From the NCBI GenBank assembly GCA_963779755.1, contig CAVZZO010000003.1, positions 704,939 through 768,938 on the forward strand: a stretch of 64,000 nt of DNA, written 5' to 3'. This DNA is from an uncultured Gemmatimonadales bacterium (lineage in GTDB: Bacteria > Gemmatimonadota > Gemmatimonadetes > Gemmatimonadales > GWC2-71-9). Under the pieces are notes generated by a model, which was not told the DNA's origin, ran no database searches, and saw nothing but the letters and a program-made list of their open reading frames with translations. Shown here one piece after another: positions 18,885 to 21,562 of the stretch (positions are counted from its first letter, which is position 1; every line of letters starts with the position of its first letter). The position numbers and the translations under genes were made by a program.

Positions 18885-19280
18885 TTACTTCTCCCGGTAG
18901 GGCGCCAAGGCGCTCAGGTGCGATCCGAGGGCGAGGGTCATGGAATCGAAGCTCGCCTCGAATTCGTTGAAGTCCAGATTTTCCAGCTCGAGGGTGTCGG
19001 TCAGCACGACCTTGTTTCCCTCCAGGCCGTAACTGCCGTGGACCAGGTCGCGGACGTTGAACTCCAGCAGCTGGCGGTAGAGTTCGCCCCGGCGCGGCTC
19101 GCCGGCGGGGAGCTCCATGACCTGTACCCGCAGGAGCACTACCGGCGGGGCATAGTTCACTACCACCTCGGCACCGCTCTGGGTCTTCAGCAGCCAGAGG
19201 TTGGGCTCCAGCTCCTGCACCTCCACGGTTCCGCTGTCCAGGCGGCCGAGGTAGGACTCGAGATCATCTTTGGTGATCAT
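18885..19280 (-). CDS. YbjN-like (type III secretion chaperone-like fold) protein
   Basis: MITKDDLESYLGRLDSGTVEVQELEPNLWLLKT…LNFNEFEASFDSM… Only 3 nt separate it from the pspA start. Confidence 0.6.
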   Translation of the reverse strand: MITKDDLESYLGRLDSGTVEVQELEPNLWLLKTQSGAEVVVNYAPPVVLLRVQVMELPAGEPRRGELYRQLLEFNVRDLVHGSYGLEGNKVVLTDTLELENLDFNEFEASFDSMTLALGSHLSALAPYREK

Positions 19281-19380: not shown

Positions 19381-19650
19381 TCAGTCCTCGGGCCTCTTCC
19401 CCGTGGTTAGCATTCGCTCGGCGAAATCCACCCGCTCCTCCAGCTCCAGCAGCCGGGCGCGCTCCGCCTCCAGCTCGGCCACCTGGCCTTCCAGGGCTGC
19501 GAGCCGCTGCTGCACCTCCGGCCCGATCTTGCCCGGCTCCCCCTTGATCCAGATGGCCCGGGTAGCGGCGATCGCCGCGTACGCGCCCACGGGAATGAAC
19601 ACGACCGCGACGGCGATGATCAGCAGCTTGACCAGGGTCTCGAACTCCAT
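19381..19650 (-). CDS. Array member 7: small single-pass membrane coiled-coil protein, LxFAERLL family
   Basis: 89 aa. TM helix LVKLLIIAVAVVFIPVGAYAAIAA and C-terminal LLELEERVDFAERMLTTGKRPED. GAAGGA RBS. Confidence 0.8.
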   Translation of the reverse strand: MEFETLVKLLIIAVAVVFIPVGAYAAIAATRAIWIKGEPGKIGPEVQQRLAALEGQVAELEAERARLLELEERVDFAERMLTTGKRPED

Positions 19651-19654
19651 GCGT

Positions 19655-19738
19655 TCAGTCCTTCTTGCCGGCGGCGAGCAGTCGTTCGGCGAAATCGATC
19701 AGCGTGGTGGTAGCCACATCGGCCATGATGGGATCCAT
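19655..19738 (-). pseudogene. Decayed eighth array member (27-codon remnant retaining the motif)
   Basis: MDPIMADVATTTLIDFAERLLAAGKKD. It has no TM segment or coiled coil and is wedged between members 6 and 7. Confidence 0.55.
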
Positions 19739-19741
19739 GGC

Positions 19742-20095
19742 TCACCCCTCTCCCCGGGGGACGGCGGCGCTGTCCCGACCCCGCGCCAACAACCGCTCCG
19801 CGAAATCCACCCGCTCCTCCAGCTCGACCAGCCGGGCCCGCATGTCCTCGATTTCCGCCGCGTTCTCTTCCGGAAGCTGGCCGGCGCCTCCCCGCGCCGA
19901 GCCGTCGATCCACCGCGCCAGCGCCTTGCCTACCGGGCCGCGCAGCGTGATGGTGGCGGCAATGGCGGCGGCGATCATGGCCGGGACCGCAAAGTCCTCG
20001 CCGATCACCACTGAAAGGGCGATGAAGGCGCCGATCAGCCCCAGCCCGATGGCACCGACGGCGAAGCCGAGTCCCGAGGGCAGTTGGCGGTCCAT
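19742..20095 (-). CDS. Array member 6: two hydrophobic segments plus coiled coil, LxFAERLL family
   Basis: 117 aa. …LRGPVGKALARWIDG…IEDMRARLVELEERVDFAERLLARG. Confidence 0.8.
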   Translation of the reverse strand: MDRQLPSGLGFAVGAIGLGLIGAFIALSVVIGEDFAVPAMIAAAIAATITLRGPVGKALARWIDGSARGGAGQLPEENAAEIEDMRARLVELEERVDFAERLLARGRDSAAVPRGEG

Positions 20096-20111
20096 ATGCA
20101 GTCTCCGGTCC

Positions 20112-20396
20112 TCAGTCCCCGGCCTTCACGGCATTACGCGGCTGCGCCAGAAGGCGCTCGGCGAACTCCAGCCGCTCTTCCAGCTCGTAGACCCGCTGCT
20201 CCAGCCCCTGCATCGCCTCCACCCGGCCGTGCAGTTCCTCCAGCTCGGTGCTGACGGCCGGATCGCCTCCGCCCCGCTTACCCCGCACCCAGGCCTCGAC
20301 CGCCCGCCCCAGGGGGCCGCGGAGGATCAGCACCGCGGAGGCGCACACCGCAAGCATGGTGGTGACGAAGACAGGCGCGATATCTCCAGGCGGCAT
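20112..20396 (-). CDS. Array member 5, LxFAERLL family
   Basis: 94 aa. TM, LRGPLGRAVEAWVRGKRGG, LEQRVYELEERLEFAERLLAQP. Confidence 0.82.
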   Translation of the reverse strand: MPPGDIAPVFVTTMLAVCASAVLILRGPLGRAVEAWVRGKRGGGDPAVSTELEELHGRVEAMQGLEQRVYELEERLEFAERLLAQPRNAVKAGD

Positions 20397-20407
20397 GGGG
20401 GTTCTTC

Positions 20408-20674
20408 TCAGTCTTCGGGTTTCGTGGCCTTCGGCGGCTGTGCCAGCAGACGTTCGGCAAATTCCAGCCGCTCTTCCAGTTCATAGACCCGCTGTTCCAG
20501 CTCCTGCACCGATTCCAGCCGGGCCCGCATGTCCTCCAGCTCCGGTTCGCTCAGGCCGGCGCCACGCTTCCGCCCGCCCAGGAGGTTCTCCAGCGCTCGG
20601 CCCAGCGGGCCCCGCAGGACCAGCACCCCCGCGGTGCACACCGCGATCAGGGCGATCACATCTCCCGGTTGCAT
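20408..20674 (-). CDS. Array member 4, LxFAERLL family
   Basis: 88 aa from the ATG at 20674, with an AGGAGGGGG RBS. LRGPLGRALENLLGGRKRG…LEQRVYELEERLEFAERLLAQP. The track shows it inside a longer ORF, 20408-20917. Confidence 0.82.
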   Translation of the reverse strand: MQPGDVIALIAVCTAGVLVLRGPLGRALENLLGGRKRGAGLSEPELEDMRARLESVQELEQRVYELEERLEFAERLLAQPPKATKPED

Positions 20675-20690
20675 CGTTGCCCCCTCCTGA

Positions 20691-21005
20691 TCAGGGCTCG
20701 AGCTGCCTGGGCCGCGGCTCCCGGGCGAGTATCCGTTCGGCGAACTCCAGCCGCTCCTCCAGCTCGGCCACCCGCGTCTGCCCTGCTTCCAGCTGCGCCA
20801 GACGGGCCCGGAGATCTTCCAGCTCTTCCCGCACATCCTGATCGCCGGGATGCCGGCCTTCCAGCCGGCGGCCGATGGCCCGGGCGATGGGCCAGAGGAT
20901 GAGCAGCCCGGCCACAATGGCCACCACGATGAGCAGGGCCGTGGTTCGCGGATCCATGGGCAGGGAGGGGACCGGCGGCACCTGAACCGTTTGCAGCGTC
21001 AGCAT
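20691..21005 (-). CDS. Array member 3, LxFAERLL family
   Basis: 104 aa (or 88 aa from the ATG at 20957). TM ALLIVVAIVAGLLILWPIA, LEDLRARLAQLE…VAELEERLEFAERILA. Confidence 0.8.
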   Translation of the reverse strand: MLTLQTVQVPPVPSLPMDPRTTALLIVVAIVAGLLILWPIARAIGRRLEGRHPGDQDVREELEDLRARLAQLEAGQTRVAELEERLEFAERILAREPRPRQLEP

Positions 21006-21020
21006 GTGAATCCCCCGGCC

Positions 21021-21272
21021 TCAGTCCTGCACCCCGGGGAGCTGTTCCGGCTCCCGGCGCTGGGTCAGCAGCCGCTCGGCGAAATCCATTCGTTCATGCA
21101 GTTCGTTCATCTCGCCACGCAACCGGTCCAGCTCTTCAATCACGGCGGGATCCTCCGCCGGGGTTGTCCCATGGCGAAGCCGCTCCGCCAGGGCCTTGCC
21201 CACGGGGCTGTACGCCAGAAGCAACGTGGTCCCCCCGCCGAAGATGAAGATGATCGCGAGTATTCCTTCCAT
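21021..21272 (-). CDS. Array member 2, LxFAERLL family
   Basis: 83 aa. TM ILAIIFIFGGGTTLLLAY, SPVGKALAERL, LHERMDFAERLLTQ. Its start shares one nucleotide with the member 1 stop. Confidence 0.8.
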   Translation of the reverse strand: MEGILAIIFIFGGGTTLLLAYSPVGKALAERLRHGTTPAEDPAVIEELDRLRGEMNELHERMDFAERLLTQRREPEQLPGVQD

Positions 21273-21562
21273 CAGTGCGGTCCCGGAAGGCGCTCGGGCT
21301 GGGCGCGCTGCGCCAGCATCCGCTCGGTGAAATCCAGCCGTTCCTGCGTGTCGGCCAACTGTCCCTGCACGTCCTCCAGCTGTTCCCGCATCCAGGCCAT
21401 TTCCTGCCGCAGCTCGTCGTCGTCCGCCGTCTTGCCCTGAAGCCTGCGGGCCAGCGCCTGACCCACCGGGCCGGTGGCGATCTTCACCACGCCAAAGGTC
21501 AGACCGGCCATCATGAGGAGCCCGGTGATCATGCCAAAAATGGGGACCATCGCATCAGGCAT
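21272..21562 (-). CDS. Array member 1, LxFAERLL family (motif variant LDFTERML)
   Basis: 96 aa. Strong GGAGGAG RBS. TM VPIFGMITGLLMMAGLTFGVV, TGPVGQALARRL, TQERLDFTERMLAQ. Confidence 0.8.
   Translation of the reverse strand: MPDAMVPIFGMITGLLMMAGLTFGVVKIATGPVGQALARRLQGKTADDDELRQEMAWMREQLEDVQGQLADTQERLDFTERMLAQRAQPERLPGPH

Follow-up and report, generated by a model that had tools for sequence, protein, structure and literature searches.

A 64-kb stretch of DNA from an uncultured Gemmatimonadales bacterium (hereafter the window, meaning the stretch as a whole; G+C content about 68%) carries on its minus strand, at positions 19381-21562, a tandem array of seven genes encoding small membrane proteins. 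To judge from their sequences, these proteins belong to an undescribed family, found here only in the phylum Gemmatimonadota, whose genes form arrays of varying size just upstream of pspA and are preceded by a conserved motif of the type recognized by extracytoplasmic function (ECF) sigma factors. There is little doubt that the family, the operon organization, and the promoter motif are real. As to function, we lean towards the view that the proteins are co-induced membrane anchors or adaptors acting through PspA.

PspA, IM30, and Vipp1 proteins are the bacterial ESCRT-III. Their recruitment to the membrane depends on the lineage and is understood in few model organisms. By analogy, and with no homology implied, the new family may occupy the niche of LiaI with LiaH, of PspB and PspC with PspA, and of PspM with mycobacterial PspA.

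The array of seven genes in the window

The array consists of the following open reading frames (ORFs):

M1: 21562-21272, minus strand; 96 amino acids (aa), with the Shine-Dalgarno-like (SD-like) sequence GGAGGAG upstream; its type takes the first position in most arrays
M2: 21272-21021, minus strand; 83 aa, its start overlapping the stop codon of M1 (TGATG); its type is usually second
M3: 21005-20691, minus strand; 104 aa, its N-terminus longer and its juxtamembrane motif degenerate
M4: 20674-20408, minus strand; 88 aa counted from the ATG at 20674 (the ORF listing extends to an upstream TTG)
M5: 20396-20112, minus strand; 94 aa, with 59% identity to M4
M6: 20095-19742, minus strand; 117 aa, carrying two hydrophobic segments; arrays usually have its type at or close to their end
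Remnant ORF: 19738-19655, minus strand; 27 aa (MDPIMADVATTTLIDFAERLLAAGKKD), in the gap between M6 and M7
M7: 19650-19381, minus strand; 89 aa, without the GPxG motif

All seven of the same-strand ORFs, 83-117 aa in length, that the original prediction had singled out are present at these coordinates, and an independent gene call agrees: the public call on the Logan assembly of run ERR11718636 gives seven identical products and, after them, a CesT_Tir_1 gene of 131 aa. SD-like sequences lie upstream of most members. The spacers between the genes had been put at -1 to 16 nt, which holds for the five from M1 to M6 (-1, 15, 16, 11, and 16 nt) but not for the gap between M6 and M7, which is 91 nt long and holds the 27-aa remnant. 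This last ORF, which lacks a transmembrane (TM) helix and retains the DFAERLL motif, is evidently a decayed eighth copy; the eighth copy of a 41-nt DNA repeat (D3) that encodes the motif falls within it. DNA identity among the copies in the window is 62-79%, with D2, the repeat shared by M4 and M5, at 79%. Because the copies have diverged to this extent, the array is evidently old and dynamic, subject to birth and death of its members, and not the product of a recent amplification.

At the level of protein, identity to M1 ranges from 25 to 44%, and six residues are common to all seven members (E74, R75, F78, E80, R81, and L83, in M1 numbering), bearing out the near-invariant C-terminal motif described earlier. 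Two parts of that earlier description need amendment. A juxtamembrane GP motif had been attributed to M1, M2, M4, M5, and M6, but M2 reads SPVGKAL at this place, with no GP. Similarly, all members had been given an N-terminal TM helix, which stands as part of the shared architecture, except that M6 carries two hydrophobic segments.

Extent of the family and its arrays

A profile built from the seven proteins and searched against a collection of 5.8 billion proteins matched more than 5,796 of them at E<=1e-3. Among the 120 matches listed, none has a Pfam domain, every named organism belongs to Gemmatimonadota, and the source annotation is either 'hypothetical protein' or one of various labels assigned automatically by JGI, PilO for example. 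An exhaustive hidden Markov model (HMM) search covering 1.84 billion cluster representatives gave 2,955 clusters at 50% identity with E<=1e-3 and 837 with E<=1e-10. The protein library used in this search carries no taxonomy, and the phylum assignment is taken from the best 80 or so loci of a scan using one genome per GTDB species. That scan yielded at least 598 matching stretches and 428 confirmed relatives, of which the best 79 loci were retained; all 79 are from Gemmatimonadota, mostly from Gemmatimonadales.

The original prediction had not recognized the proteins as belonging to any named family, and indeed no member gave a significant match to Pfam, NCBIfam, PADLOC, PHROGs, or the sequences of PDB, so that the family has no curated match in the libraries scanned. 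The PDB search turned up only generic coiled coils (E>=0.06), and the motif strings of the family are absent from the literature text that was searched. An origin in a defence system or a phage was considered and rejected, since matches to PADLOC and PHROGs were at chance level only. Some database proteins (P0003, P0057, P0027, P0268, and P0356) appear as fusions of two or three family units each. Because the linkers between the units look out of frame, these are most likely frameshifted or miscalled segments of arrays and not true multidomain proteins.

In the 79 loci, the genes are found in same-strand tandem arrays of 2-14 copies, L071 alone having a single, solo member, and the median intergenic spacing within arrays is 4 nt. 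When each gene is typed by its best paralog in the window, the order is seen to be partly conserved: M1 types come first (1-3 copies), then M2 types, with M3, M5, and M7 types in the middle and an M6 type usually last. Remnants without a TM helix that retain the motif occur also in six of these loci (L013, L017, L037, L041, L055, and L072).

Two genes follow the array in the window:

CesT/Tir-like chaperone-fold gene: 19280-18885, minus strand; 131 aa, PF22550 (CesT_Tir_1), E 1.6e-26
pspA: 18881-18123, minus strand; PspA/IM30, 252 aa, PF04012, E 2.5e-46

The presence of pspA downstream of the array, as first described, is secured by the Pfam match and by full-length similarity to E. coli PspA (30% identity, E 1e-20). 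The gene between them, which most likely starts at 19280, had been labeled YbjN-like. CesT_Tir_1 is the better description, the match to YbjN having an E value of only 0.0046.

Linkage to these genes was counted over the 60 loci having at least 1.4 kb of DNA downstream. In all 60, pspA lies on the same strand within 1.5 kb after the array, so the association seen in the window extends to related genomes. In 54 of the 60, the CesT/Tir-like gene separates the array from pspA, and its product is best read as a frequent but dispensable accessory.

A conserved ECF-type promoter motif

An ECF-type motif, of which the original prediction made no mention, was first seen by aligning the DNA upstream of the first members of arrays. 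In the window, it is found together with an inverted repeat:

Promoter motif of ECF-sigma type, TGAAAC-N16-CGTA: 21670-21645, minus strand; -35 element at 21670-21665, -10 element at 21648-21645
Inverted repeat GTTTC-N5-GAAAC: 21679-21665, minus strand; read from the sequence, overlapping the -35 element

The motif lies 18 nt past the stop codon of sdaAA, the gene upstream, and 83 nt ahead of the ATG of M1. It is the single occurrence of TGAAAC-N16-CGTA in the window, and none of 100 shuffles gave one. Upstream regions of 76 loci were considered, and both strands of all the DNA, 2.44 Mb, were scanned. Of the 76 loci, 69-70 have GAAAC-N16/17-CGTA no farther than about 400 nt ahead of their first member; the whole 2.44 Mb contains 83 occurrences, nearly all of which are these sites. 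Most of the loci (64-65) have a spacer of 17 nt, and 5 have one of 16 nt. Positions not forced by the search are conserved as well (T-26 in 62/65 and A-20 in 65/65), leading to a consensus of gTTnCG-n3-TGAAACAtt-n-tgaaacgtc-n3-cCGTA, whose upstream GTTnCG is conserved in most loci (G in 45, T in 41, C in 45, and G in 40 of 65). The elements recognized by sigma-W of Bacillus subtilis are TGAAAC at -35 and CGTA at -10 (PMC5758882), a consensus from another phylum that the array motif fits, with a spacer of 16-17 nt. At 31 of the 70 sites, the first TGAAAC is followed about 10 nt further on by a second, direct copy. This second GAAAC and the inverted repeat may be operator sites for an additional regulator.

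No sigma-70-like promoter was found between the genes; the one promoter-like match, a weak one, lies inside M1 (21537-21510). Similarly, the single terminator-like match lies inside M7 (19617-19604), and this is fewer than in shuffled sequences. In view of the short spacers, the lack of an internal sigma-70-like promoter, and the one conserved ECF-type motif, we infer that array, cesT-like gene, and pspA are transcribed together, on one ECF-dependent transcript. A structured 5' untranslated region (UTR) or riboswitch was considered and rejected, given a fold z-score of -0.39 and no Rfam match at E<=1 for the 5' UTR region.

Anatomy and topology of the proteins

Conservation and topology were assessed from 515 full-length members taken from 80 sources. 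One hydrophobic segment or TM helix is present in 451 of them. The N-terminus ahead of it has a median length of 3 residues, lysines plus arginines average 0.11 before the TM helix as against 2.9 over the 15 residues that follow, and the part beyond the TM helix has a mean net charge of -3.2. Following the positive-inside rule, the proteins are predicted to be single-pass anchors of the inner membrane, with the N-terminus outside and the C-terminus inside, and with essentially no periplasmic domain.

The TM helix is followed by a juxtamembrane helix (GPxG[RK]AxAxR), a flexible linker, and then a cytoplasmic helix, acidic and about 35 residues long, whose end is the nearly invariant E-L-E-E-R-L-D-F-A-E-R-L-L (as a pattern, E-x-x-ER-x-DF-x-ER-x-L). 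An AlphaFold2 model of M4, made from an alignment of 117 sequences, has a mean predicted local distance difference test score (pLDDT) of 82.5, with helices at residues 3-21 (TM), 23-33 (juxtamembrane), and 43-78. The linker and a tail without helix are of lower confidence, and over residues 41-80 the block means of pLDDT are 87-98. Conservation across the 515 paralogs is distributed as follows:

C-terminal block: E70 90%, E73 96%, R74 99%, D76 92%, F77 99%, E79 99%, R80 100%, L82 97%
Juxtamembrane helix: P28 73%, A32 84%, A34 71%, R36 81%, G39 70%
TM helix and linker: variable

Within the C-terminal block, L71, L75, A78, and L82 form a hydrophobic stripe, and a second face, also conserved, is made up of E70, E73, R74, F77, and R80. 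Since this helix is conserved all around, in paralogs otherwise only 25-45% identical, it may well be buried in a specific protein complex. The tails that follow it (REPERLP-like) occur just as often where the CesT-like gene is missing as where it is present. The possibility that the block mimics a helix of PspA was raised by a resemblance to the eye between DFAERL and ESFERM, and it was rejected when hhalign against 64 PspA proteins from Gemmatimonadota gave a probability of 0.1%.

A possible role through PspA and its rivals

According to the model that we lean towards, envelope stress would release an ECF sigma factor, leading to transcription of the entire unit, so that the small proteins would be made together with PspA. 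They would insert into the inner membrane and display the invariant helix on its cytoplasmic face, where it would serve as a site for the docking or nucleation of PspA oligomers. PspA might be handed over by the CesT-like chaperone. The diverged TM and linker portions would place different members in different membrane environments or in hetero-oligomers. In this scheme, we infer the dependence on sigma factor, the co-induction, and the binding to PspA or to the CesT-like protein. The original prediction spoke of adaptors or sensors for PspA. The connection to PspA gains from the synteny in 60 of 60 loci and from the one promoter motif, while the sensor half of the proposal is weakened. Anchors or adaptors are favored over sensors because the exterior of the proteins amounts to a median of only 3 residues, and the single promoter that they appear to have in common with pspA suggests co-induced effectors rather than upstream sensors.

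Several observations weigh against this model. The range of 2-14 copies argues against a complex of fixed stoichiometry, and the CesT-like gene is absent from 6 of 60 loci with no visible change in the tails of the members. Three solo members with the motif intact lie away from pspA (L071:3907-4203, L056:3305-3571, and L074:3304-3573), so the operon does not hold every member of the family; none of the three is among the GAAAC-N15-18-CGTA matches of the scan of whole loci, though their upstream regions were not separately examined. A crude search of the window and the loci, with a single E. coli RpoE sequence as probe plus one iteration, revealed no cognate gene for an ECF sigma factor or anti-sigma factor; matches to the probe were lacking in the window, and two, both unrelated, came from L058 and L025. 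Finally, the 79 loci are the best matches to M1, hence mostly orthologous loci, and give a biased sample of the family.

The main rival, less probable in our estimation yet to be taken seriously, holds that the proteins are stress effectors or clients of the CesT-like chaperone, co-regulated with PspA but neither binding nor recruiting it. They could, for example, be peptides that stabilize the membrane or plug leaks. An operon and an ECF-type promoter motif in common with pspA would be expected in this case too, the solo members away from pspA would find a natural place, and the gene adjoining the array in 54 of 60 loci has the CesT/Tir fold, a class known to bind partner peptides (PMC11237479). 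Nonetheless, the universal neighbor is pspA (60/60) and not the CesT-like gene (54/60), and the tails of the proteins do not differ where the latter is absent. Moreover, the cytoplasmic block of 13 residues is invariant across paralogs otherwise 25-45% identical, which points to a common protein partner and not to a role directed at lipid. There is a much smaller chance that the proteins are regulatory, either unconventional anti-sigma factors or signal transducers, and control the ECF sigma factor or the regulatory activity of PspA rather than anchoring it. The ECF-type motif is consistent with this, the inverted repeat on the -35 element hints at extra regulation, and there is a very weak similarity (E 0.97) to NepR, a small anti-sigma factor. 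The match to NepR is at chance level, however, and no adjacent gene for a sigma factor was found. The topology, with its 3-residue exterior, is opposite to that of classical anti-sigma factors, and 2-14 diverged copies would be unusual for a regulator.

It is about equally unlikely that the proteins are highly diverged and duplicated true homologs of PspB, working as in the enterobacterial PspBC switch. The resemblance that first brought PspB to mind is genuine as far as it goes: both are about 75-100 aa long, with one TM helix, at the N-terminus, and a helical domain in the cytoplasm, and are encoded by genes adjoining pspA. Sub-threshold matches to PspB recur (TIGR02976 at E 0.0067 for M2, the best, and 0.031 for M6; PF06667 at E 0.11 for M4), and duplicates of PspB within psp operons are known (PMC11237479). 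Taken as homology, the resemblance fails to find support in sequence comparison. Of 117 members, no more than 8 have any match to PF06667, at E>=0.097, while 30 match a generic coiled-coil family. With a narrow profile of 18 PspB proteins, all from Enterobacteria, hhalign gave a probability of 4% over 14 columns. The genes of the new family lie upstream of pspA, whereas those of PspB lie downstream, and PspB lacks the invariant ERxDFxERxL block. Furthermore, the promoter motif is of the ECF type and not the sigma-54 type, and the other components of the switch were not detected: phmmer searches with the E. coli proteins, crude and of low sensitivity, found no PspB, PspC, or PspF-like protein in the window, in agreement with the original prediction, and nothing in the retrieved loci with PspC and PspF. 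At the far end of the scale is the notion that the ORFs are not genes at all but chance open frames, of which DNA of about 68% G+C has many long ones on both strands. This is effectively refuted by conservation in 79 species, where some residues are invariant and third positions vary, by identical models from an independent gene caller, and by the presence of SD-like sequences and coupling of starts to stops. The preferred reading thus remains that of anchors or adaptors for PspA, with a role as effectors or chaperone clients as its chief competitor and the anti-sigma and PspB readings less likely.

Comparison with known systems

LiaI is a small membrane anchor in Bacillus subtilis, co-induced with the PspA homolog LiaH. 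The new family resembles it in that the gene for a small membrane protein lies directly upstream of a gene of the PspA family, within what appears to be one stress-type unit, and in the proposed role as a membrane anchor for a PspA homolog. It differs in having one TM helix and a long cytoplasmic helix, in its 2-14 paralogs as opposed to a single gene, and in the putative control by an ECF sigma factor in place of a two-component system. There is no relationship in sequence to LiaI, and the LiaI and LiaF families gave no match in Pfam or NCBIfam even at E<=1.

The pspA gene of B. subtilis (ydjF) belongs to the sigma-W regulon. Its operon has ydjGHI downstream, whereas here an array and a cesT-like gene lie upstream, and the comparison is across phyla.

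A dyad of CesT/Tir and PspA has been described as a conserved core embedded in larger operons (Ravi et al. 2024, PMC11237479), and the CesT/Tir-fold gene immediately upstream of pspA in the window fits this description. The partners of the dyad that have been reported include band-7/flotillin proteins, an AAA+ ATPase, YqiJ/YuaF, and spermidine-synthase-like and similar proteins, and lineage-specific membrane partners of PspA have been reported as well (PMC11237479). The array of small proteins is not among them. Gemmatimonadota are not mentioned in the main text of that article or in the one supplement consulted, nor in the text searched of a second comparative-genomic survey of Psp systems. 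One of the two surveys built its gene neighborhoods from protein domains detected by HMM, and to such a method a family lacking a Pfam model would be invisible. A relationship to YjfI/YjfJ was considered and rejected: the PspA of the window is PspA-like and not YjfJ-like, and the CesT-like protein has no similarity to YjfI.

What is new, then, is a large family lacking a Pfam model within a known functional niche, the CesT/Tir-PspA dyad having already been described (PMC11237479). What is unusual is the variability of the tandem arrays combined with a conserved order of paralog types, and the striking conservation of the ECF-type promoter motif. With 2-14 copies and decaying remnants, the arrays are also a clear-cut example of small membrane proteins evolving by birth and death. 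For experiments, the nearly invariant motif of 13 residues offers a short peptide, such as ELEERLDFAERLL, with which to test directly binding to PspA or to the chaperone. TGAAAC-N16/17-CGTA offers a first point of entry to an ECF-sigma envelope-stress regulon in Gemmatimonadota, none having been described in the literature searched. The phylum is reported to rank in the top ten of soil phyla by abundance (PMC8547001).

One may go further and suppose that the ERLDFAERLL helix is a dedicated docking motif for ESCRT-III-like polymers of PspA, the arrays providing combinatorial adaptors for distinct sites on the membrane. We regard this as a speculation, and a rather improbable one. If true, the set of adaptors would target or nucleate PspA assemblies and would constitute a bacterial counterpart to the multiple ESCRT-III adaptors of eukaryotes. 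A budding morphology has been reported in cultured Gemmatimonadota (PMC8779627), and such a system could be tied to budding, beyond the repair of damage alone.

Other neighboring genes

Several genes on the minus strand flank the unit in the window:

71-aa ORF, MTYDDIIRVLTYACDNDQPV...: 23554-23339, minus strand; without a Pfam or PHROG family
sdaAB (with an ACT domain) and sdaAA, encoding L-serine dehydratase: 23237-21688, minus strand; between the 71-aa gene and the array
DUF1611 gene, with N- and C-terminal domains: 18008-16902, minus strand; after pspA in most loci
357-aa ORF: 16899-15826, minus strand; following the DUF1611 gene in the window

Of 63 loci, 54 have the 71-aa gene upstream of the array at a distance of no more than 3 kb, and in 33 it is the immediate upstream neighbor. 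As the promoter motif lies downstream of it, its association with the array may be only one of synteny. In 22 of the 63 loci, the window included, sdaAB and sdaAA intervene between the 71-aa gene and the array. Their absence from this position in the other loci suggests a lineage-specific insertion into a conserved synteny. On the other side of the unit, the DUF1611 gene and the 357-aa ORF are probably an unrelated housekeeping pair.

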